Shown one piece after another: positions 5,643-22,223 of a stretch of DNA of 32,000 bases (positions are counted from its first letter, which is position 1; every line of letters begins with the position of its first letter). The stretch comes from Sutcliffiella cohnii (GTDB lineage Bacteria; Bacillota; Bacilli; Bacillales; Bacillaceae_I). The position numbers and the translations under genes are program-made. The stretch covers positions 3,870,869-3,902,868 of the forward strand of contig NZ_CP018866.1 in NCBI RefSeq assembly GCF_002250055.1, in the 5' to 3' direction. The notes beneath the pieces were generated by a model. It saw only the letters and a list, made by a program, of their open reading frames with translations, was not told the DNA's origin and ran no database searches.

Positions 5643-6176
5643 TTACCAAAGATTCCTATTGGAGGTCGTAACAGCAATGGCACCACTTTTTAAAGAATGC
5701 TGCACATCCTCTTCTGTACGGATTAATCCACCCGCTATTAGGGGAATGCCTGTTTTTTCGATAATTTCTTTATTAACACTCGGTATAATTCCGGGAAGTA
5801 CTTCTATGTAGTCCGGCTGAACTTTTTTGCATAGCTTTAAATTATGATCAAGTGCATGACTATCTAAGGCGAATAACCGTTGGATTCCAATTACTTGGTG
5901 CTTTTTTGCAAAAGTTATAACGTTCGCTCTCGTTGATATAATCCCATCTATTTTCACGTTATTAATTAAATACTCTAGTCCATATTCATCCACTTTTAAT
6001 CCTTGAATGAGATCAGCATGCATCAATACTTTTTTGTTATGCTGTTTCGCATGCTTCACGATACTGTCTACTTGGGAAAGTCGTGTTTCTAAAAATATAA
6101 TATGCTCATGGTCTTTTTTTAGCACATATTCAAAGTCCTTTATATTACGGATAGCAGGGATAACAGTAGGAAACAA
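5643..6176 (-). CDS. glpP: Glycerol uptake operon antiterminator GlpP
   Basis: 177 aa. The blocks ISTRANV, IQRLF.LDS and EVLPGIIP...TGIP.IAGG.IRTEED are characteristic of B. subtilis GlpP. Confidence 0.9.
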   Translation of the reverse strand: MFPTVIPAIRNIKDFEYVLKKDHEHIIFLETRLSQVDSIVKHAKQHNKKVLMHADLIQGLKVDEYGLEYLINNVKIDGIISTRANVITFAKKHQVIGIQRLFALDSHALDHNLKLCKKVQPDYIEVLPGIIPSVNKEIIEKTGIPLIAGGLIRTEEDVQHSLKSGAIAVTTSNRNLW

Positions 6177-10933: not shown

Positions 10934-11833
10934 TTATACTTTTAAAAACTTACGGACAGACATCATACTACCCCAAATTCCGATAAACGCACCGATAGCA
11001 ACTAAAATGCCAACAACTTGGAATGCGAACGGGAAGAAAGGTAAGAATTGTAAAAATTGAGATGTTACTTTTGGTTGAACTAGATCAATGAGGTAATAGT
11101 ACGATGTTAAAATAATCGCAATTGGTAAAAATGCACCAAGAACACCTAACCAAAGACCTTCTAGGAAAAACGGCCAGCGGATAAACCAATTTGTTGCCCC
11201 TACTAGTTTCATAATTTCAATTTCTTTTCTTCTTGCAAAAATAGTTATTTTAATAGTGTTAGATATTAGGAACATCGCCGTAAATACTAACCCTAAAATT
11301 AATGCGAGTCCGATGTTACGAGCTATATTAAAGATTTGGAAGAGCCTTTCCACCGTTTCTTGACCAAACACTACTTTCGCAACATTGTCAAAGCCCTCAA
11401 TTTGTTTTGCTACATCAAAGGTATCTTGTGGAGTCTTTGTTTTGACAATAAACACATCATATAGTGGATTACTTTGTTCAAAAAGGTCTAAAATAGCGCC
11501 ATCTTCACCAAAGCTATCCTTTAAACTTTCTAATTCACTATCTTTAGATGAAAATACAACAGATTCAGCTTTCGAAACTTTTTCTAAATCTGCTTGTAAT
11601 TGATTTTGCTCTTCTTCTGTTGCTGTCATTTCTATATAAACTTTAATTTCAACGTCTTGTTCAATTTCCTTCGCCACGTTATTTAAGTTCATCATAATAA
11701 CGAGGAATACACCGACTAATAGTAGCGTTACAGTAACGGCACTAATGGATGCAAATGTCATCCAACCATTACGAGCTAAACTTTTGAAACTTTCTCTGAA
11801 ATGTCGGAGTAATGTTCTAGGCTTCATAGCCAT
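10934..11833 (-). CDS. ftsX: Cell-division ABC transporter permease-like protein FtsX
   Basis: 299 aa with one transmembrane helix, a large extracellular loop and three C-terminal transmembrane helices (FtsX topology). The start overlaps the ftsE stop by 17 nt. Confidence 0.92.
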   Translation of the reverse strand: MAMKPRTLLRHFRESFKSLARNGWMTFASISAVTVTLLLVGVFLVIMMNLNNVAKEIEQDVEIKVYIEMTATEEEQNQLQADLEKVSKAESVVFSSKDSELESLKDSFGEDGAILDLFEQSNPLYDVFIVKTKTPQDTFDVAKQIEGFDNVAKVVFGQETVERLFQIFNIARNIGLALILGLVFTAMFLISNTIKITIFARRKEIEIMKLVGATNWFIRWPFFLEGLWLGVLGAFLPIAIILTSYYYLIDLVQPKVTSQFLQFLPFFPFAFQVVGILVAIGAFIGIWGSMMSVRKFLKV

Positions 11834-12503
11834 AATCCCCCTTCACTTCGTCTCTAGCAATTTTTCCGTATTCTATTGCAATAACACGTCTTTTCATCGT
11901 GTTAACAATCTCTTTGTTGTGTGTTGCCATCACAATCGTCGTGCCTCGTTCATTAATTTCTTCGAACAACTTCATAATTTCCCATGAAGTATCAGGATCT
12001 AAATTCCCGGTAGGTTCATCGGCAATCATTACTTTCGGGTTATTAACGATAGATCGCGCGATAGATACACGCTGCTGTTCTCCACCTGAAAGTTCATTTG
12101 GAAAGGCTCTCGCTTTATGCTTTAGCTTTACTAAATCTAGCACTTCCATGACACGTTTTTTTATACTTTTTGGCGTTTCTTCAATAACTTCTAGCGCAAA
12201 TGCTACATTTTCATAAACTGTTAGTTGTGGTAACAGTTTAAAATCTTGGAACACGACGCCTATTTTTCTACGTAATAATGGAACGTGGCGCTCTTTAAGC
12301 TTAGATAAATCGATTCCGTCAATAATAATGGAACCGCTTGTCGGCTTTTCTTCGCGGTACATCATTTTAATAAATGTTGATTTCCCTGCACCACTAGGTC
12401 CTACGACGTAAGCAAATTCGCCTGCTTTAAATGTTATATCTATACCATTAACTGCTTGTACACCATTTGAATATTTTTTAAATACATTATGCATTTCAAT
12501 CAT
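11817..12503 (-). CDS. ftsE: Cell-division ABC transporter ATP-binding protein FtsE
   Basis: 228 aa with Walker A GPSGAGKST, signature LSGGEQQR and Walker B VMIADEPTGNLD. Length and context are those of FtsE. Confidence 0.95.
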   Translation of the reverse strand: MIEMHNVFKKYSNGVQAVNGIDITFKAGEFAYVVGPSGAGKSTFIKMMYREEKPTSGSIIIDGIDLSKLKERHVPLLRRKIGVVFQDFKLLPQLTVYENVAFALEVIEETPKSIKKRVMEVLDLVKLKHKARAFPNELSGGEQQRVSIARSIVNNPKVMIADEPTGNLDPDTSWEIMKLFEEINERGTTIVMATHNKEIVNTMKRRVIAIEYGKIARDEVKGDYGYEA

Positions 12504-12534
12504 GTAATCACCTTTTTAGTAGAAAATGTATTTT

Positions 12535-12578
12535 CTCTATATCAATCCATTGTCTTCTCTATATTAATCCATTGTCTT
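12535..12578. repeat. Tandem 22-bp duplication upstream of ftsE
   Basis: CTCTATATCAATCCATTGTCTT (12535-12556) is immediately repeated as CTCTATATTAATCCATTGTCTT (12557-12578), with one mismatch. It lies 32-75 nt upstream of the ftsE start codon. Confidence 0.8.
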
Positions 12579-12902
12579 AAACGGCAAGTATCCTCAATCT
12601 CAAAATTGTTCAGACTCATTATAACATCATATTCCGACAAAAAGAGCATTATTTATATTACATTTTCTTTTCAATTTAAAACGATTATTGGGAATATAGG
12701 TTTATTTTGTCATATTTCATCTTAATTTGGTAGAGGTAGAAAAAAATAATAGTTTTGTTGTGGGGGAAGTTTGAAATTTTTGTGTTTATTTTGATAGTAG
12801 CTGTGGGATCTTGCTTTTTTTCGTGGGGATGCTTTGACGTGAATGGACTTTGGATTGTGCTACCGGGGTCCTATTATAGGCTAAAGGAACTGTGGTATGC
12901 AT

Positions 12903-13238
12903 CAACTGAGCTACTTTTTCGGCCAACTGAGCTACTTTTTCGGCCAACTGAACGGGCTTTTACGCCAGCTGGGCTGCTTTTTCGGCCATCTGAACGGTTT
13001 TTTGCGCCAACTGATTCACTTTTTCGGCCAACTGAATGGACTTTTGCGCCAACTGAGCTACTTTTTCGGCCAACTGAACGAGCTTTTGCGCCAGCTGGGC
13101 TGCTTTTTCGGCCAACTGAACGGACTTTTGCGCCAACCGGGTTACTTTTTCGGCCAACTGAACGGACTTTTGCGCCAACCGGGTTACTTTTTCGGCCATC
13201 TGAACGGGTTTTTGCGCCAACCGTACGGACTTTTGTGC
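12903..13238. repeat. 21-bp-period tandem array 1 (16 units)
   Basis: There are 16 contiguous 21-bp units (336 bp). They tend to alternate ...CTTTTTCGGC and ...CTTTTGCGC endings, for example CAACTGAGCTACTTTTTCGGC and CAACTGAACGGACTTTTGCGC, giving a loose 42-bp doublet. The 5-6 nt between the conserved ends vary. Three overlapping ORFs on both strands are open across the array. Confidence 0.95.
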
Positions 13239-13290
13239 CAACTCATGTTTCAAAGCTTGTTGGCTCAGAATCATTACTACTAGTCTGGAC

Positions 13291-13329
13291 AAAAAAAGGT
13301 CCAAAAAGTTAATTTCTACTTTTTGGACC
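13291..13329 (-). terminator. Rho-independent terminator after the vpr-like gene
   Basis: A perfect 12-bp stem pairs GGTCCAAAAAGT (13298-13309) with ACTTTTTGGACC (13318-13329) around an 8-nt loop. An A7 run at 13291-13297 gives U7 on the minus strand. Confidence 0.85.
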
Positions 13330-13336
13330 ATTACTA

Positions 13337-15772
13337 TTATTCGATTGTTAATACATCTGCTGCTGCGACAGCACGTTCACCGTTGCCTTTTTTCGCATAG
13401 ATTGCCACGCGGTAGTTACCAGCAGGTAGTACGGTACCATCTACTAATGTACCATCCCACACATGCTCAGCATATCCAGCAGGAAGGTTAGAATCGTAAA
13501 GTGCATCTCCAACATAAGAACCTAATCCACCAGTTGCTGTTGCAGAGTAGATCCACACTTCGTACTCATCTGCGCCACCTGGTAAGTAAGACCAAATGTC
13601 GAATGTGTTGTTTCCTAAGCTATCGAACCCTAAAGAAGTTACTCGTGGGAAGTCTGGTTCACCTACGAATAGAATTGTAGGAACTTCTACTACTGTTTCA
13701 CCTTCTGTAACTGTTAAGTAGCCTTCATAATAGCCGGAGTCTAATTTAGAAGCATCTACTGTTACATTTACATTTACTTTTTGTGTTTTACCTGGGTTTA
13801 CTCTTGTATTGTTACTTGTTGTAACTTTTACATGTTTGCCTACTTCGTTTTTGAATGTGAATTCGACGTTGTAACGTTTAGCTTCATTAGAAAGGTTTTG
13901 GATTTCGAAATGTTGACGTGCACTTTCTTTTCCTTTTGCCTTTTCAAATACTCCGAAAGAATAGCTTCCAGGGTTAACTAATGTTTCTGCATTGATTGCA
14001 TCTAGTACACGGATACTACCAGCACCTTGTGTATTGTGTGGATAGCTTTCCCCAGTTGCTGGATTAATTAGATCTTCTGCAGTATTCATTAACGCAGATT
14101 TTACTTGGAATACATCCCAATCAGGATTAGCTTGTAATACTAATGCCGCTGCTCCTGCTACGTGTGGACTTGCCATTGAAGTACCTTGCTTTGCTCCGTA
14201 TCCGTATGGATTTGATGGATCAAATGTTGGTACTGTACTTACGATTGCAACACCAGGTGCTGAAACGTCAGGCTTGATCATCCAAGTATCCATTACTGGA
14301 CCACGAGATGAGAAGTCTGCTACTGTTTCACCTACTTGGTGAGAAAATGCAATGTTAAAGCTTACTGTTACGTCATTAACTTTTGCTTTTAACGCTTCCC
14401 CATCTGCTTGGTTAAGCATAATTGTTGGAACGTCCATTCCTGGAATTAGTGGCATATCACCAGCTACGTTATTGTAAAGAACTGCACCAACTGCGCCAGC
14501 TTTTTTAGCTTCTGTCGCTTTGTCCACGAATGGGATACCTGCTCCACGGCTAATTAATGCGATTTTACCTTCTAATTCTTTACCTGCAAACTCTGCTGGA
14601 GAACCAAAGCCTACATCTACTAAATCAAAGTTTTGTCCATTTAAAGCCTTTAACGCATCTTCAGATGGGAATCCTTGAACTGCTGAGGAAGCGTAAGATA
14701 CTCCGTCAGAAGAAGTTGTTGTTGCTGTAAATACGTTGTACGGTAATTGAGTTGCACCAACAGAGATAGCATCGCGAGAAGTTCCAGGAGAACCTACTGT
14801 CCAGTTGTTTGGACCGCTATTTCCGTTAGAAGTTACTGCTACTACACCTTCTGCCATTGCCCAATCTAATGCGATAGACGTTGCAAAGTCAGGGCTGTTT
14901 AACGTGTTACCTAAAGATAGGTTCATAACATCAGCGCCATCTTGAACTGCGCGCTCAATACCTGCGATAACGTTAGCTGTCGTACCGCTACCACCAGGTC
15001 CTAAAACACGGTATGCTAAAAGCGTCGCTTCTGGAGCTACCCCTTTAATTAGACCGTTCGCTGCTACTGTACCTGCAACGTGTGTACCGTGAGTTGTTTC
15101 TGCACCACGCGGATCATTTTTAGGTGTTTCTTGTGGATCTTCGTCGTTATCTACGAAATCATATCCTTTGTAAGCACCAAATTGTCCAGCTAAATCTGGG
15201 TGTGTGTAATCTACACCAGTATCGATAACTGCTACTGTTACACCTTCACCAGTGAAACCTGCATCCCAAGCTTCGTTAGAACCGATAAATGGAGCGGAAT
15301 CTAACATTTCTGGGCTATAAGATTCTTCTACAACATATTCAGTGGAAGAATCTACTGTATATGTAACGTTCGGATAAACTGCTTTTACGCCAGGAGTTGC
15401 TAGTAAGCTAGGAATCTCGTTTTGTGGAACTTCCACAGCGAAACCAGAAAATACGTAATCATATTCACGTTCTACTTTTGAAGTAGAAACACGTTTCCCA
15501 ACTTCATTTTTTACTTGGTTACGAACATTATTCAAGTTTTTCTTCGTTTGTGCTTTTCCTTTATGCTTTGCTTCGACAAGAGACTCTTCTTCTAGTTCGA
15601 CAATAACTGTTGTCGGCTTCGAGCTAGATAAATCATACTCGCCGTATAGAGTTGCTAATTCTTCTACTTTAGTTACTTTCCCTTGGTTCACTTGTGCACC
15701 AGCAGAAAAAGAACTAAACACTAATAGGATGGCACTAACAATCATTAGTGCTGTAACCAGTTTGTTACGCAA
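13337..15772 (-). CDS. vpr: Secreted S8 subtilisin-family serine protease with PA-domain insertion, Vpr-like
   Basis: It has a signal peptide, an I9-like propeptide and the catalytic motifs VIDTGVDYTHPDL (Asp), HGTHVAGTVAANG (His) and GTSMASPHVAGAAAL (Ser). A PA-type insertion lies between His and Ser. Length and blocks are very close to B. subtilis Vpr. The start is either TTG at 15772 (GGGGAG 8 nt upstream) or GTG at 15781. Confidence 0.85.
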   Translation of the reverse strand: MRNKLVTALMIVSAILLVFSSFSAGAQVNQGKVTKVEELATLYGEYDLSSSKPTTVIVELEEESLVEAKHKGKAQTKKNLNNVRNQVKNEVGKRVSTSKVEREYDYVFSGFAVEVPQNEIPSLLATPGVKAVYPNVTYTVDSSTEYVVEESYSPEMLDSAPFIGSNEAWDAGFTGEGVTVAVIDTGVDYTHPDLAGQFGAYKGYDFVDNDEDPQETPKNDPRGAETTHGTHVAGTVAANGLIKGVAPEATLLAYRVLGPGGSGTTANVIAGIERAVQDGADVMNLSLGNTLNSPDFATSIALDWAMAEGVVAVTSNGNSGPNNWTVGSPGTSRDAISVGATQLPYNVFTATTTSSDGVSYASSAVQGFPSEDALKALNGQNFDLVDVGFGSPAEFAGKELEGKIALISRGAGIPFVDKATEAKKAGAVGAVLYNNVAGDMPLIPGMDVPTIMLNQADGEALKAKVNDVTVSFNIAFSHQVGETVADFSSRGPVMDTWMIKPDVSAPGVAIVSTVPTFDPSNPYGYGAKQGTSMASPHVAGAAALVLQANPDWDVFQVKSALMNTAEDLINPATGESYPHNTQGAGSIRVLDAINAETLVNPGSYSFGVFEKAKGKESARQHFEIQNLSNEAKRYNVEFTFKNEVGKHVKVTTSNNTRVNPGKTQKVNVNVTVDASKLDSGYYEGYLTVTEGETVVEVPTILFVGEPDFPRVTSLGFDSLGNNTFDIWSYLPGGADEYEVWIYSATATGGLGSYVGDALYDSNLPAGYAEHVWDGTLVDGTVLPAGNYRVAIYAKKGNGERAVAAADVLTIE

Positions 15773-16038
15773 TGGACCCACTCCCCTTTTTAACTATTCT
15801 TACAGCTAACGTCGCAACATTAGACTGCAATCGACACTAATTTCCTACAATTATTTCGGAAACTAAAATAAATTATATTTTTAATTATTTAAATATTCAA
15901 TAGAGTTTGAAATAAACAGGATGAAAGTCCAAGCTGTTTTTTGAAAAATAGATATTGAGGCATGATTTTTAATTTCGAAGGTTAGTGCTAATTACTTATG
16001 TTTTGAAAAAAGACGAGGGGGAAACTACATAGAAATAG

Positions 16039-16086: not shown

Positions 16087-16425
16087 TTATTTATGTTCTG
16101 CTAACCATGCAGCAACAGTAGATGCTTCTTCACCTTTTAAGAAGCCACCACGCATATTACCTTGTCCATTTAAAATAATGTCTTCAATTTCTTCTTTAGA
16201 ATATTTATTTCCTACTTGCGATAGTTGTGGTCCGAAGCCACCTTCTAAATTACCACCGTGACAGCTTTGACAGCTTTGTTGATATAGCTTTTCAGCATCT
16301 GCACTGACAGCATCGCCTGTTGCATCTTGTGCAGGAGCTTCCGTTGCATTATCTCCTCCACCACCACAAGCACCAAGGACAATGAGAGTACTAACGAAAA
16401 CGAATGTTAATAACCATTTTTTCAA
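16087..16425 (-). CDS. cccB: Membrane-anchored (lipoprotein) cytochrome c-551
   Basis: It has a CQSCHG haem-binding motif and a lipobox (LGAC) after a short hydrophobic N-terminus. The preferred TTG start at 16425 lies 7 nt after AAGGGGGA and gives 112 aa. The track ORF extends to 16473. Confidence 0.85.
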   Translation of the reverse strand: MKKWLLTFVFVSTLIVLGACGGGGDNATEAPAQDATGDAVSADAEKLYQQSCQSCHGGNLEGGFGPQLSQVGNKYSKEEIEDIILNGQGNMRGGFLKGEEASTVAAWLAEHK

Positions 16426-16520
16426 GGTAAAATCCCCCTTAGCAATAATTTTGTAGTTAAAAAGGATGCGCATTCCTTATACTTAAAAAATACCACATTC
16501 CATTGGTTATTATAACCATC

Positions 16521-17393
16521 CTACTCCCGTTTAAACCCTTCTCCTAACACTTCTGAAGCATTCATAACGACGACAAAAGCAGACGCATCAATGCTTTGCA
16601 CCACTTGTTTCAACTTTGTGAATTCTTGCTGATTTACTACACACATAAGCACCGGCTTTTCATTTAAAGTGTATCCACCATGGGCTGTTAGCTTTGTCAC
16701 ACCGCGATCTAATTTTGTTAGTATTGCTTCACGAACTTCCGCTTCTTTTTCGGAAATGATAATAATTGTCTTCGAATATCCGATACCGACTTGAACCATA
16801 TCAATTGTTTTACTTGTTACGTATAGAGATAAAAGCGCGTATAAACCAAGTTCAATATCAAAAACAATTGCAGCAGAAATTACAATTAAACCGTCGATAA
16901 TGGCAACGCACGTCCCTAGAGATAGCCCGGTATATTTATGTATAATTTGCGCTGCTAAGTCCGTTCCTCCTGTAGACGCTCTTCCTCTAAACACAAGCCC
17001 AAGCCCAATTCCGACCCCAATTCCTCCGAAAAGACTTGCAAGTAACGGATCCATCGTCGCAGGTTGAATATCTCTCGTCCATAAAACCATTAATGGAAGT
17101 GTTACCGTTCCTACTAACGTTTTTAATCCAAACTGACGTCCTAGTAAAACGACTCCTGCAAAAAATAGCGGAATATTAAAAGATAATTGAACGATACCAG
17201 GTTCCCAGCCTAACACTGCATTTAATATAGTACTAATTCCACTAACTCCACCCGATGCTACACGGTTAGGAAGTAAAAATAAATTAAAAGCTAACGCGAC
17301 AAAAGCCGCTCCGATAATAACGTACCCATATTCTTTCGCCCTTTGCATAAATGGGCTGTCTACTTTTCGATCATTCTTTTTACGTTTGCTCAA
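16521..17393 (-). CDS. yvjA: YitT-family membrane protein with C-terminal DUF2179 domain (YvjA-like)
   Basis: It has multiple transmembrane helices with GGVSGI and GGTDL motifs, and a soluble C-terminal domain. The track ORF starts with TTG at 17408, but that codon is part of the GGAGGGAG ribosome-binding site. The preferred start is TTG at 17393. The position between cccB and prfB matches B. subtilis yvjA. Confidence 0.85.
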   Translation of the reverse strand: MSKRKKNDRKVDSPFMQRAKEYGYVIIGAAFVALAFNLFLLPNRVASGGVSGISTILNAVLGWEPGIVQLSFNIPLFFAGVVLLGRQFGLKTLVGTVTLPLMVLWTRDIQPATMDPLLASLFGGIGVGIGLGLVFRGRASTGGTDLAAQIIHKYTGLSLGTCVAIIDGLIVISAAIVFDIELGLYALLSLYVTSKTIDMVQVGIGYSKTIIIISEKEAEVREAILTKLDRGVTKLTAHGGYTLNEKPVLMCVVNQQEFTKLKQVVQSIDASAFVVVMNASEVLGEGFKRE

Positions 17394-17565
17394 AGATGCT
17401 CCCTCCAACTACGCTAACATATAAACCACAAACAGAAAGAGTATAGCACGCACTTTTTTCGATGTAAACGATGCTCGAATAACGTGTTAAAGCGCTAAAA
17501 GTTAGTTTGTGGTAAGAGGGGGAATTTCATGCATGGGTAGAGGGGGAGGGTGGTGGGTTTTTACG

Positions 17566-18425
17566 GAAACCAGGCTTCGTTTTGTGTAGACCGAATGGTT
17601 TTTGTGCCAACTGAGTTCGGCTTTGTGCCAACCGGATTCGCTTTTGCGTCAATCGAGATCACTTTTGCGCCAATCGAGCTGGCTTTTGTGCCAACCGGAT
17701 TCGCTTTTGTGCCAACTGAGTTCATTTTTGCGCCAATCGAGCTGGCTTTTGTGCCAACCGGATTCGCTTTTGTGCCAACCGAGTTCACTTTTGCGTCAAT
17801 CGAGCTGGCTTTCGTGCCAACCGGATTCGCTTTTGTGCCAACCGAGTTCGGCTTTGTGCCAACCGGATTCGCTTTCACGCCAACTACAACACGGTTTCGG
17901 CCAAACTGACTTCCTTTCACGCCAACTGCAACGCGGTTTCGGCCAAACCGACTTCCTTTCACGCCAACTGCAACACGGTTTCGGCCAACTCGACTTCCTT
18001 TCACGCCAACTACAACGTGTTTTCGGCCAAACTGACTTCCTTTCACGCCAACTGCAACGCGGTTTCGGCCAACTCGACTTCCTTTCACGCCAACTACAAC
18101 ACGGTTTCGGCCAAACTGACTTCCTTTCACGCCAACTGCAACGCGGTTTCGGCCAAACCGACTTCCTTTCACGCCAACTGCAACGCGGTTTCGGCCAAAC
18201 CGACTTCCTTTCACGCCAACTACAACGTGTTTTCGGCCAACTCGACTTCCTTTCACGCCAACTGCAACGCGGTTTCGGCCAAACCGACTTCCTTTCACGC
18301 CAACTGCAACACTATTTCAGCCAACCGAACTCACTTATTGATGCACTTGCGGATTTAATTGACGCACACGGCCAATTTTTTGACGCAGCTGAAAAATTAA
18401 TTGACGCACTTGACGTTATTTTTAA
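17566..18425. repeat. 21-bp-period tandem array 2 (39 in-phase units plus ~2 degenerate leading units; three sequence families)
   Basis: 17607-18425 is exactly 39 x 21 bp with no phase slip. Family A (17607-17879) has 13 units such as CCAACCGGATTCGCTTTTGTG, with a 63-bp super-repeat. Family B (17880-18299) has ten 42-bp doublets. Family C (18300-18425) has six diverged units ending ...TTGA|CGCA. Four overlapping ORFs on both strands run through it. Confidence 0.95.
17880..18299. repeat. Family-B sub-array: ten near-identical 42-bp doublets
   Basis: The unit is CCAACT(A/G)CAAC(AC/GC/GT)G(G/T)TTTCGG CCAA(ACT/ACC/CTC)GACTTCCTTTCACG. All differences between copies fall at these few positions. 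Four of the ten copies contain the perfect palindromic hairpin CGGTTTCGGCCAAACCG. Confidence 0.95.
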
Positions 18426-18497: not shown

Positions 18498-19596
18498 TTA
18501 AATTTTTGAACGTAAATATGCATCAATGAACGGATCGAGTTCGCCGTCCATGACTGATTGTGTGTTTCCGATTTCTGTGTTGGTACGGTGATCTTTTACA
18601 AGGGAATAAGGGTGGAAAACATAGGAACGAATTTGACTTCCCCAGCCAATGTCTTTTTGTTCGCCACGGATTTCATCTAATTCCGCTTGTTGCTCTTCTA
18701 GTTTACGTTGATAAAGTTTTGCTTGGAGCATTTTCATCGCACGTTCACGGTTTTTAATTTGGGAACGTTCTGTTTGACACGTTACGACTACATTCGTTGG
18801 AATGTGTGTAATACGGACTGCGGAGTCAGTTGTGTTAATATGCTGACCACCTGCTCCACTTGCACGGTACGTATCAATTTTTAAATCTTCCGTGCGGATG
18901 TCGATTTCAATTTCATCATTAAACTCTGGCATTACGTCGCAAGATACGAACGACGTATGACGACGGCCGGATGAGTCAAATGGAGAAATACGTACAAGAC
19001 GGTGCACTCCTTTTTCTGCCTTCAAATACCCGTATGCGTTATGCCCTTTAATTAAAAGAGTTACGCTTTTAATTCCAGCTTCATCACCTGGAAGGTAATC
19101 TAACGTTTCTACTTTGAAACCTTTTTTCTCTGCCCAGCGTGTGTACATACGTAGTAGCATAGAGCCCCAGTCTTGAGATTCCGTTCCACCAGCGCCAGGA
19201 TGCAATTCTAAAATCGCATTATTTTTATCGTAAGGCTCGCTTAATAAAAGCTGTAGTTCAAATTTATTAAACTCACCTGTTAGTTCTTTTACTTCATTTA
19301 CTAGTTCAGCTAGCAGTTCTTCGTCTGGCTCTTCTTTCACTAGCTCATACGTTACATCTAAGTTTTCATAGCTTTCATGAAGTTCATGAAATTGACCAAC
19401 TGAATCTTTTAACGCATTCGCCTCACTAATTACTACTTGGGCTGCGTTTTGATCATCCCAAAAGTTAGGATGACTCATAAGCTCATCTAATTCGGCGACT
19501 CTCTTTTCCTTATGTTCTAAGTCAAAGAGACCCCCTAAAGTCCGCTAAACGTTTAGCCATTTTCTCAAGTTCGTTTCTAATTTCTGCAAGTTCCAT
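18498..19596 (-). CDS. prfB: Peptide chain release factor 2, expressed through a programmed +1 frameshift
   Basis: Frame 0 runs from ATG at 19596 ([24 protein letters not shown]) to an in-frame TGA at 19524-19522. The +1 frame continues [22 protein letters not shown]... into the 326-aa track ORF, which carries SPF and GGQ motifs. Confidence 0.95.
19521..19536 (-). promoter_or_regulatory. prfB: RF2 autoregulatory +1 frameshift site (SD-like AGGGGG, then CTT TGA C)
   Basis: The minus strand reads AGGGGG TCT CTT TGA C. AGGGGG is at plus coordinates 19531-19536 and CTTTGAC at 19521-19527. This is the canonical prfB recoding signal. Confidence 0.9.
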
Positions 19597-19712: not shown

Positions 19713-22223
19713 TTAACGTCCGCAACATTGCTTATATTTTTTTCCGCTACCACAAATACATGGGTCGTTACGGCCAATATTAATAGCTTTTGTAACAGGA
19801 CGTTTTTTCGCTTTTTCTTTTCCGTCTTCGTTCGGTACAACAGCTGTACCTTTAGCTACTTCTTGACGCTCTAAATTGTTGCGAATTTGAGCTTTCATGA
19901 TGTATTTCGATACATCTTCTTCAATCGCAGCAATCATCGTTTCAAACATCGCGAAACCTTCCATTTGGTATTCACGTAACGGATCAATTTGACCGTAAGC
20001 ACGTAAATGAATTCCGCGACGAAGCTGATCCATTGCGTCGATATGGTCCATCCATTTACTATCAACTGCGCGAAGAACCACTACTTTTTCGAACTCGCGA
20101 ATTTGTTCTGGCTCTAGCTCTTGTTCTTTCTCGTCGTAGCGCGCGATTACTTTTTCCGTAATGAGCTCGATCATTTCTTCTGGCTCTTTACCACGTAAGT
20201 CGCCTTCAGTCACGTCGCCTTCCCTTAAAAGGTTTGCCTCTAAATAGTCGACAATTCCTTGTAAGTTCCATTCTTCTGGAAGGTCGGCAGCTGGCGTGTA
20301 TAGACGAACATTACGCTCGATAGTAGACTTTAACATTTTTTCAACGATTGAACGTAAATTTTCAGAATCTAATACTTCAAAACGTTGCTTGTAAATAACT
20401 TCACGTTGTTGACGCAGTACATCGTCGAATTGTAAAAGCTGTTTACGCGCATCGAAGTTGTTTCCTTCTACACGTTTTTGCGCTGATTCTACGGCACGAG
20501 ATACCATTTTACTTTGAATTGGTTGCGTATCGTCCATACCAAGTCGTTCCATCATATTTTTCATATTGTCAGAACCGAAGCGGCGCATTAATTCATCTTC
20601 CATGGAAAGGTAGAATTGCGTTACCCCTGGGTCTCCTTGACGACCGGAACGGCCACGAAGCTGGTTATCAATACGGCGTGATTCGTGACGCTCTGTACCG
20701 ATAACAGCAAGACCTCCCGCTTCTTTTACACCTTCGCCAAGCTTAATGTCTGTACCACGACCTGCCATATTTGTCGCGATCGTTACAGATCCTTTATGAC
20801 CTGCCTCTGCGATAATATCGGCTTCGCGAGCATGATTTTTCGCGTTTAAGACGTTATGTTTAATGCCACGTTTGTTAAGTAGCTTAGAAATAACTTCTGA
20901 CGTTTCAATCGCAACTGTACCAACAAGAACTGGTTGGCCTGCTTTATGGCGCTCTGCGATATCGTTCGCAACAGCATTATGCTTTCCTTCAATCGTTTTG
21001 AAAATTAAATCAGCACGGTCATCACGTGCGATCGGTCTGTTCGTAGGGATTGCGACAACGTTCATATTGTAAATGTTACGGAACTCTTCTTCTTCTGTTT
21101 TCGCTGTACCTGTCATACCAGAAAGCTTTTCGTACATACGGAAGTAGTTCTGGAACGTAATCGTTGCAAGTGTCATACTTTCGTTCTGAATTTCTACGCC
21201 TTCTTTCGCTTCAATCGCTTGGTGTAGTCCGTCAGAAAATCGACGACCTTTCATAAGACGACCAGTAAATTGGTCAACAATGACGATTTCGCCTTCTTGT
21301 ACAACGTAATCCACGTCATTATGCATCGTGACATGCGCCTTTAACGCTTGATTAATATGATGGTTTAACGCGACATGCTGGATGTCAAATAAGTTATCGA
21401 TTCCGAACGCTTTTTCCGCTTTCGAAATTCCGTCTTCTGTTAATTGAACACCTTTTGTCTTTTCGTCATATGTGTAATCTTCTTCCCGCTTTAACTGACG
21501 TACGAAACCGTTCGCTTGTAAGTAAAGAGCAGCGGATTTTTGAGCACTACCTGAAATAATTAATGGGGTACGCGCCTCATCAATTAAAATCGAGTCTACC
21601 TCATCAATAACAGCAAAATGAAGTGGGCGCTGTACCATTTGCTCTTTGTACAGCACCATGTTGTCACGTAAGTAATCAAAGCCTAATTCATTGTTCGTAC
21701 TATATGTAACATCTGCTTTATATGCTTCTATTTTTTCTTCACGTGTAAGTCCGTTTAAGTTTAATCCTACTGTTAAGCCAAGGAACTCAAAAAGTTGTCC
21801 CATTTCGTTCGCATCACGGCTTGCTAAATATTCGTTAACTGTAACAACGTGTACGCCTTTTCCAGTAAGAGCATTTAAATATACAGGTAGTGTTGAAGTT
21901 AATGTTTTACCTTCCCCTGTTTTCATCTCGGCGATATTTCCTTCATGAAGGGCAATCGCTCCCATTAACTGCACTTTGTATGGGTGTAAGCCTAAAACAC
22001 GACGTGCTGCTTCACGAACTACTGCAAATGATTCAACGAGTAGGTCATCTAACGTTTCGCCTTTTTGATAACGTTCTTTAAACTCTTCTGTTTTGGCACG
22101 CAATGCATCGTCGGAAAGCTTTTCCATATCACTGCTTAGCGCATCTATTTGGTCGGCCAATTTCTCTGATTTTTTAATTTGGCGCTTATTCATGTCAAAA
22201 ACTTTGTTCAATAATCCACGCAT
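19713..22223 (-). CDS. secA: Preprotein translocase ATPase SecA
   Basis: 836 aa, collinear with B. subtilis SecA. Shared features are MKTGEGKTL, the DEAD-like [19 protein letters not shown] block, [13 protein letters not shown] and the C-terminal zinc motif [14 protein letters not shown]. Confidence 0.98.

Follow-up and report, generated by a model that had tools for sequence, protein, structure and literature searches.

Intergenic variable-number tandem repeats (VNTRs) are known from the MIRU and ETR loci of Mycobacterium tuberculosis and from the Bams and vrr MLVA loci of Bacillus anthracis. The STAR elements of Staphylococcus aureus, in which a GC-rich conserved core is combined with variable spacers, are likewise intergenic; their cores lie about 40 bp apart and the elements are dispersed genome-wide. 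Here we analyse a tandem array (array 1) between the gene of an S8 peptidase and the ftsEX operon of Sutcliffiella cohnii, within a stretch of 32,000 nucleotides of contig NZ_CP018866.1 that we refer to as the window. As in MIRU/ETR and Bams/vrr VNTRs, head-to-tail units of tens of base pairs occupy an intergenic spacer, the copy number varies among near-identical strains, variant units are organised in higher-order blocks, and contigs of short-read assemblies end there (loci L082-L085 and L088). In contrast to these VNTRs, the array has so far been found only in S. cohnii and its unit sequence is unrelated to theirs; furthermore, its register is strictly 21 bp, equal to 7 codons, and one of its frames resembles heptads. 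With STAR elements it shares a GC-rich core followed by a short variable block, the AT-rich Bacillota host, the intergenic location, the presence at more than one locus and the variability among strains, whereas its period is exactly 21 bp and it is known from only two neighbouring loci, the sequences of the two having been compared visually only.

A third comparison is offered by the (Q/K)R(F/L)DxID genes of Anoxybacteroides, Bacillus sp. FJAT-27445 and Bacillus sp. PS06, which also have a period of 21 and encode amphipathic heptads, and with which the S. cohnii arrays share the secA-prfB-yitT gene neighbourhood. However, the (Q/K)R(F/L)DxID arrays are part of intact ORFs whose N- and C-terminal domains are unique, contain no stops and show pN/pS values of 0.21-0.33, while the frame of array 1 is broken by stops in each strain, is flanked by no domains, found no homologues and has a value of 0.52. 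To our knowledge, neither a typing scheme nor a function has been described for array 1 of S. cohnii, and our literature search on 21-bp intergenic repeats in Bacillus, Bacillaceae or B. cohnii returned nothing relevant.

Anatomy of the array

The repeat region consists of the following elements.

12903-13238, no strand: array 1, 16 gap-free contiguous 21-bp units
13239-13259: degenerate 17th unit (CAACTCATGTTTCAAAGCTTG) at the S8-proximal edge of array 1

Stepping by 21 from position 12903 yielded 16 units without indels, the same number that a first-pass annotation of this DNA had counted. On the ftsE (minus) strand the unit logo gave the consensus yTGGC-ss-AAAA-r-nnnnnn-C-r-G, and reading out the units bore out the layout proposed earlier, a conserved core with a variable block of 5-6 nt. 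Two unit types alternate, TTGGCCGAAAAAG... and TTGGCGCAAAAG... on the minus strand, also described by their endings ...CTTTTTCGGC and ...CTTTTGCGC. The loose 42-bp alternation of ...TTTTTCGGC and ...TTTTGCGC endings noted in the first pass holds in units 3-15; the exceptions are units 1 and 2, both of the first type, and unit 16, which is a GTGC variant. An A4-5 tract and a TTGGC core occur once in each unit, and the GC content of the array is 51% compared with 38% for the window.

Tandem Repeats Finder (TRF) called a period of 42 (7.3 copies, 85% matches, score 427) and one of 126 (90% matches, score 493), in addition to a period of 21. Self-identity of the array reached 0.64, 0.83 and 0.84 at lags of 21, 42 and 126, respectively, as opposed to 0.39-0.40 at the off-register lags 20 and 22. 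Moreover, a 17-nt core of the array occurs nine times in the window, where shuffles gave an expectation of 0.03. The repetitiveness of array 1 thus exceeds chance by a wide margin.

Identical units recur as had been claimed, CAACTGAGCTACTTTTTCGGC three times (units 1, 2 and 8), CAGCTGGGCTGCTTTTTCGGC twice (units 4 and 10) and CAACCGGGTTACTTTTTCGGC twice (units 12 and 14), and we found one further case, CAACTGAACGGACTTTTGCGC, in units 11 and 13. The non-adjacency of such copies had been taken as a sign of shuffled unit types rather than simple slippage, an assumption that proved unnecessary. In the unit mismatch matrix, units 2-7 correspond to units 8-13 as a 126-bp block with 0-5 mismatches per unit, and units 11-12 are an identical copy of units 13-14, a 42-bp block. 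Nested multi-unit duplications therefore suffice to place identical units apart, and such nested block duplication is ordinary minisatellite behaviour.

Genomic context and the ftsE promoter

The array and its paralogue (array 2, see below) are embedded in a cluster of genes transcribed from the minus strand.

10934-11833, minus strand: ftsX (NCBIfam)
11817-12503, minus strand: ftsE (NCBIfam)
12616-12674, minus strand: ftsE promoter block shared by the genus Sutcliffiella; its extended -10, TGtTATAAT, is at 12618-12623
13298-13329, minus strand: intrinsic terminator of the S8 gene (12-bp stem, 8-nt loop, T7 run)
13337-15781, minus strand: S8 peptidase with I9 and PA domains (Vpr-like)
16087-16473, minus strand: cytochrome c551 (cccB)
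16521-17408, minus strand: YitT-family protein
17600-18328, no strand: array 2 in the prfB-yitT spacer, with degenerate units to about 18440
18498-19478, minus strand: prfB
19713-22223, minus strand: secA

The genes named vpr and ftsEX in the first pass were correctly identified, the former as an S8 peptidase by its I9 and PA domains and the latter by NCBIfam. The distance from the S8 stop to the ftsE start is 833 bp (13336 down to 12504), in agreement with the gap of about 830 bp given before, and the array indeed lies between the terminator and the promoter region. The terminator ends about 38 nt before the degenerate edge unit. The DNA found only in S. cohnii spans roughly 12710-13296 and encloses the array.

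We delimited the promoter block by aligning the ftsE-proximal spacers of S. horikoshii, S. halmapala and a third Sutcliffiella species. Array 1 is located about 280 bp upstream of the conserved ftsE -10, beyond the promoter block; judging from the conservation of this promoter, it would lie outside the ftsE leader. The regulatory link to ftsEX implied by the first-pass annotation is not borne out, since the promoter is this far away, three sister species keep the promoter without the array and the copy number varies between about 16 and 28. An element 280 bp upstream, and absent where the promoter is kept, does not behave as a promoter or leader element of ftsEX.

Two other features of this spacer were observed. 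A 22-bp tandem duplication (TTCTCTATATCAATCCATTGTC, 2.1 copies) at 12533-12578, in the presumed ftsE 5' leader, is present as a single copy in strain L082 and constitutes a second length polymorphism, much nearer to ftsE than array 1. In addition, just upstream of the extended -10 the promoter block contains TTTTGTCGAAAT in the three sister species, where it lies about 120 bp ahead of ftsE (L092, L093 and L094); its counterpart in S. cohnii (window 12630-12645, minus strand) is TTTTGTCGGAAT. We take this motif to resemble a Spo0A box (TGTCGAA), and it may be a candidate for sporulation control of ftsEX.

Variation among strains and sister species

Four S. cohnii strains were compared. The window corresponds to L083 (contig BCUW01000097, Bacillus cohnii NBRC 15565T), with which it is 100% identical over the common region; an FtsE 99% identical to that of the window is likewise named Sutcliffiella cohnii. 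An origin in the Bacillus cereus group, with array 1 as a Bams MLVA locus, was rejected because the FtsE matches and the BCUW01 accession point to S. cohnii. The sizes of array 1 were as follows.

Window (L083): 16 units and one degenerate edge unit
L082: about 18 units
L091: about 20 units
L081: about 28 units

All four strains carry the array at the same site, with flanks that are 96-100% identical and a differing unit content. Across the 41-43 distinct units of these strains, conservation is far higher in the unit core (TGGC..AAAA....C.G) than in the variable block of 6 nt. In strain L081 all segments flanking array 1 match the window at 99-100% and array 2 does so at 99.9%, yet its array 1 contains about 12 extra units of the AQKSERL/AQKECQL type (in the heptad reading described below) on the S8 side. 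The two sequences show 55 differences over 6,240 ungapped positions, 30 of which fall at 13251-13646, within 400 bp beside array 1, and 21 in a patch inside prfB (18612-19089), mostly at third positions. The 3.7 kb of S8-cccB-yitT between 13646 and 17338 contain none. Since the differences cluster next to array 1, the differing version of the array probably arrived, or was rebuilt, through a local recombination event.

The mosaic patch adjoining array 1 extends into the S8 gene, with 22 mismatches in 55 bp within its last 25 codons (window 13355-13409, L081 6843-6897), so that the C-terminus of the protease reads VAIYAKKGNGERAVAAAD in the window and VVVFAQKGELNRAVLATD in L081. Gene conversion of this 3' end from a second ORF of 814 aa in the window was considered and rejected because the two proteins are unrelated.

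None of the sister species has an array at the orthologous position. The S8-ftsE spacers of S. horikoshii (L092; 371 bp) and Sutcliffiella sp. (L094; 377 bp) and the cccB-ftsE spacer of S. halmapala (L093; 490 bp) contain the same promoter block and no array. The first-pass annotation had proposed to compare relatives for presence and unit number, and would have taken spacers without any array, together with ftsEX expression unchanged on deletion, as a sign of a neutral minisatellite; the comparative part came out this way, with about 16, 18, 20 and 28 units within S. cohnii and none in three sister species.

A probable non-coding VNTR between terminator and promoter

Taken together, we consider array 1 to be a non-coding, species-specific minisatellite (VNTR) filling the gap between a terminator and a promoter, driven by slippage and recombination and lacking a conserved product, a reading to which we assign a probability of roughly 0.62. 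Its units are arranged head-to-tail and belong to the class of about 10-100 bp, their number changes from strain to strain and no product is conserved. The anatomy, the variability among strains, the absence from sister species, the broken reading frames (see below) and the position relative to terminator and promoter were all observed directly, and slippage and recombination are the mechanism we infer. A seed sequence, possibly a long-decayed coiled-coil micro-ORF, would have left the 21-bp period and the heptad-like reading. Replication slippage and recombination, unequal or ectopic, of blocks of one, two and six units would then let the array grow and shrink and would reshape it, and its 21-bp register would be kept because slippage happens in whole units. 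Array 1 is probably neutral, and it possibly descends from a decayed heptad micro-ORF.

Four observations sit less comfortably with this reading. The core is far better preserved than the variable block, a difference that would not be expected under pure neutrality but that can arise through concerted evolution. The low pN/pS of the heptad frame hints at a past or weak constraint at the protein level. Furthermore, the array is predicted to be strongly curved, and such curvature could be functional. Finally, the period of 21 is over-represented among the arrays surveyed (14 of 29 in 80 loci). These points are taken up in the following sections.

The heptad reading frame

As 21 bp equal seven codons, a point absent from the first-pass annotation, one frame of array 1 on the ftsE strand reads as heptads resembling a coiled coil (AEKVAQL/AQKSVQL).

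12960-13274, minus strand: heptad pseudo-ORF, MILSQQALKHEL-[AQKSVQL/AEKVAQL]n, 104 aa, ended by a TAA in unit 3
12786-12959, minus strand: in-frame continuation past the stop, two and a half heptads and a unique tail of 37 aa

The frame opens with MILSQQALKHEL and continues as AQKSVRL AQKPVQM AEKVTRL AQKSVQL ... AEKVAQL. The array could thus be, or have been, the gene of a small coiled-coil heptad protein on the ftsE strand with a product of polymorphic length (MILSQQALKHEL-[AEKVAQL/AQKSVQL]n-tail), which we judge unlikely. In its favour, the heptad frame is clean, with invariant L, A, E/Q and K, and the variation falls on third positions of Ala and Lys codons and on the synonymous first position of Leu. 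Over 41 distinct units of the four strains none of the other five frames had a pN/pS as low as its 0.52, and permutation of the columns placed this value at about the 5th percentile of the null distribution (mean 1.08); genuine heptad genes used as controls nevertheless gave the lower values quoted above for the (Q/K)R(F/L)DxID arrays. A tail of 38 codons is open and in frame in all four strains. The NCBIfam model TIGR03057 scored the 104-aa pseudo-ORF at 31.7 bits against a cut-off of 18.6. However, all 16 heptads (xxxL, then A-E/Q-K) lack the Gly that defines this X-X-X-Leu-X-X-Gly family, and the match therefore reflects generic heptad periodicity. Pfam detected no family above threshold in the array ORFs, only sub-threshold coiled-coil noise.

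The frame is interrupted in all four strains, at differing places. In the window, a TAA at 12960-12962 precedes the end of the array by two and a half units. The same stop (A*KPVQL, the asterisk denoting the stop) is present in L091, which also lacks the MILSQQ start region, while L081 has two different ones (A*KECRL and AHK*SEL) and L082 combines two stops of the K*S type with one frame-shifting unit of 22 nt. The predicted products would consequently range from 20 to 104 aa over the four strains. Only 24 nt separate the end of the S8 terminator from the ATG of the pseudo-ORF (13274), so that there is no room for a promoter. No Shine-Dalgarno sequence precedes this ATG in the window and no usable one in the other strains; in L081 and L082 an AGGAG lies only 2 nt from it. 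Hence an uninterrupted ORF with its start and ribosome-binding site, conserved among strains as expected of a coiled-coil gene, was not observed, and neither was a hydrophobic residue at both core positions: the d position is always L, but at the a position units and strains vary among V, A, S, P, T, L and E, and in many units it is S, E, P or T. The absence of the array from sister species argues in the same direction.

Homology searches pointed the same way. A 123-aa minus-strand ORF had no homologue among 5.8 billion proteins, the single match being a chance low-complexity hit from a high-GC organism, and the 57-aa in-frame tail had no match among 1.84 billion representative proteins; the HMMER composition filter may hide further array-derived ORFs, and protein searches cannot count other copies of the array. 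Altogether, the codon-like signal of the heptad frame hints at an old coding origin rather than a current gene.

Helical phasing and DNA curvature

As 21 bp also equal two turns of B-DNA, each unit presents its A4-5 tract and its TTGGC core once every two turns. Array 1 might on these grounds be a helically phased DNA element, intrinsically curved or cooperatively bound by a nucleoid-associated or regulatory protein, that would insulate or modulate the S8 terminator and the ftsEX promoter. We regard this as quite unlikely. The conservation of the core next to a variable spacer would suit such an element, as would the use of the same core by array 2 at a distance of 4.4 kb and the existence of non-coding-looking 21-bp arrays with GC-rich cores of their own in several other Bacillaceae. 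In a dinucleotide wedge model, with parameters after the Bolshoy/Trifonov table, the array of three strains had a predicted ratio of end-to-end distance to contour length of 0.12-0.27, compared with about 0.9 for shuffles and neighbouring coding DNA. However, two coding heptad arrays of other species (L005 and L007) were equally curved in the model, whereas the non-coding arrays of L012 (195-450), L017 and L021 were uncurved. We thus rejected curvature as a diagnostic feature: being shared by unrelated coding 21-bp arrays and missing in some non-coding ones, it would be a by-product of the period, and the predicted curvature of array 1 is not evidence of function. The distance from the -10 and the intact promoter of the array-free sister species also speak against phasing with a regulatory purpose, as do the unconstrained copy number and unit content among strains, and our analysis yielded no candidate binding protein.

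Opposite-strand ORF and other readings

A second ORF covers the array on the other strand.

12897-13283, plus strand: open reading frame of 128 aa (MHQLSYFFGQL..., MHQLSYFFGQLNGLLRQL...)

It runs antisense to the genes on either side, and that it represents a genuine gene appears very improbable. No stop interrupts it within array 1 of the window, L081 or L091, its ATG is preceded at a distance of 8 nt by an AAAGGA, and a gene caller annotated an ORF of 148 aa on the same strand in L091. Yet the units give a pN/pS of 1.13 in this frame, L082 and L091 lack its ATG, L082 is frameshifted, and searches of Pfam, NCBIfam and protein collections returned neither a family nor a homologue. The frame is open mainly because the plus strand is poor in A, and a second plus-strand frame is equally open.

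That array 1 specifies a non-coding RNA with a structure, or is left over from a phage, a plasmid or another mobile element, is hardly credible. Only the repetitive sequence and the occurrence of GTAGCTCAGTTGG in the unit, presumably resembling a tRNA D-arm, can be adduced for it. Rfam gave no match at E<=1, folding of the two strands was slightly worse than that of dinucleotide shuffles (z of +1.13 and +0.49), ARAGORN detected no tRNA in the array region, no inverted repeats other than the terminator flank the array as they would a mobile element, BLAST against plasmids and phages and searches of viral collections gave no match, the exact two-unit pattern was found nowhere in metagenomes or viral contigs, and a looser three-core pattern retrieved four metagenome loci, all of them unrelated QL-coding heptad arrays or chance matches. 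The inverted-repeat scan also returned one weak pair in the promoter region. An arm of the S8 terminator also shares a 12-nt match with the unit core, which is too weak to interpret.

Array 2 and 21-bp arrays in other species

Array 2, in the prfB-yitT spacer, is paralogous to array 1, having periods of 21, 42 and 63 bp, the same orientation and the core TTGGC(A/G)CAAAAG. It consists of a 63-bp higher-order block of 21-bp units followed by a 42-bp block in 11 copies, and the two arrays form direct repeats that bracket yitT-cccB-S8. We detected no further copies in the rest of the window or in the 10 kb past its left end. The length of array 2 is the same in L081, while L091 has expanded units of a GCGTCAA type that are mere edge remnants in the window. 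In the homologous heptad frame of array 2, units with a stop recur at regular intervals, which implies that amplification proceeds regardless of that frame.

Subsequently, 80 ftsE loci of other species, mostly Bacillaceae with some other Bacillota, were surveyed. Fourteen of the 29 tandem arrays of at least 80 bp had a period of 21. Five of these lie inside intact coiled-coil genes with unique termini:

L003, 3707-4138, minus strand: intact coiled-coil gene
L005, 1858-2586: intact coiled-coil gene
L007, 1165-1809: intact coiled-coil gene
L009, 5543-6127, minus strand: intact coiled-coil gene
L010, 1898-2371: intact coiled-coil gene

The remaining nine are intergenic and look non-coding, each with a species-specific GC-rich core and often an A-tract. 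The arrays of this appearance are:

L008, 12842-12935: non-coding-looking 21-bp array
L011, 12903-13371: non-coding-looking 21-bp array
L012, 195-450 and 9788-10165: non-coding-looking 21-bp arrays
L017, 5760-5986: non-coding-looking 21-bp array
L018, 4603-4717 and 11139-11253: non-coding-looking 21-bp arrays
L021, 12554-12863: non-coding-looking 21-bp array
L045, 7485-7584: non-coding-looking 21-bp array
L093 (S. halmapala), 5834-5952: short 21-bp array in the prfB-yitT spacer

One core is reused at two or more intergenic sites in L011, L012 and L018, as it is in arrays 1 and 2 of the window.

The coiled-coil genes with (Q/K)R(F/L)DxID heptad arrays form a family with conserved C-terminal domains (...SE(F/L)RSNFK... 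and ...ALNKRLLRVEATIEQLQSQV) that sits in the secA-prfB-yitT neighbourhood of several Bacillaceae. We considered array 1 as a pseudogene of the (Q/K)RFDxID genes near prfB and rejected it, as the two are on opposite strands and share no unit similarity. Arrays with a period of 52 bp were also encountered, in the prfB-yitT spacer of S. horikoshii (L092, 3201-3422) and the secA-prfB spacer of Bacillus sp. FJAT-27445 (L009, 4003-4167). The spacers of the secA-prfB-yitT cluster seem generally prone to tandem arrays. A Tn7-like module (TnsA, TnsB, TniB/TnsC and TniQ/TnsD) was observed at 11212-16687 of L094 (Sutcliffiella sp., CP152003.1), inserted downstream of an M23 peptidase gene.

The excess of period 21 is the only aspect of array 1 that goes beyond an ordinary VNTR, and given this over-representation the period itself may be favoured. 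A wider habit of Bacillaceae, in which intergenic arrays locked to 21 bp would serve as helically phased scaffolds for a DNA-binding protein or as a nursery and graveyard of coiled-coil micro-ORFs, is conceivable from the survey, though we hold it to be doubtful.

Implications

For the biology of ftsEX, array 1 is probably irrelevant, being located outside the conserved promoter and dispensable in sister species. As a minisatellite, it provides a ready-made and highly discriminating VNTR marker for S. cohnii strains and is a likely cause of contig breaks in short-read assemblies; in addition, it appears to mark a patch of local recombination. In Bacillaceae, the excess of 21-bp intergenic arrays, if it does not just represent decayed heptad genes, would point to a selection or a mechanism tied to the helical phase of DNA.
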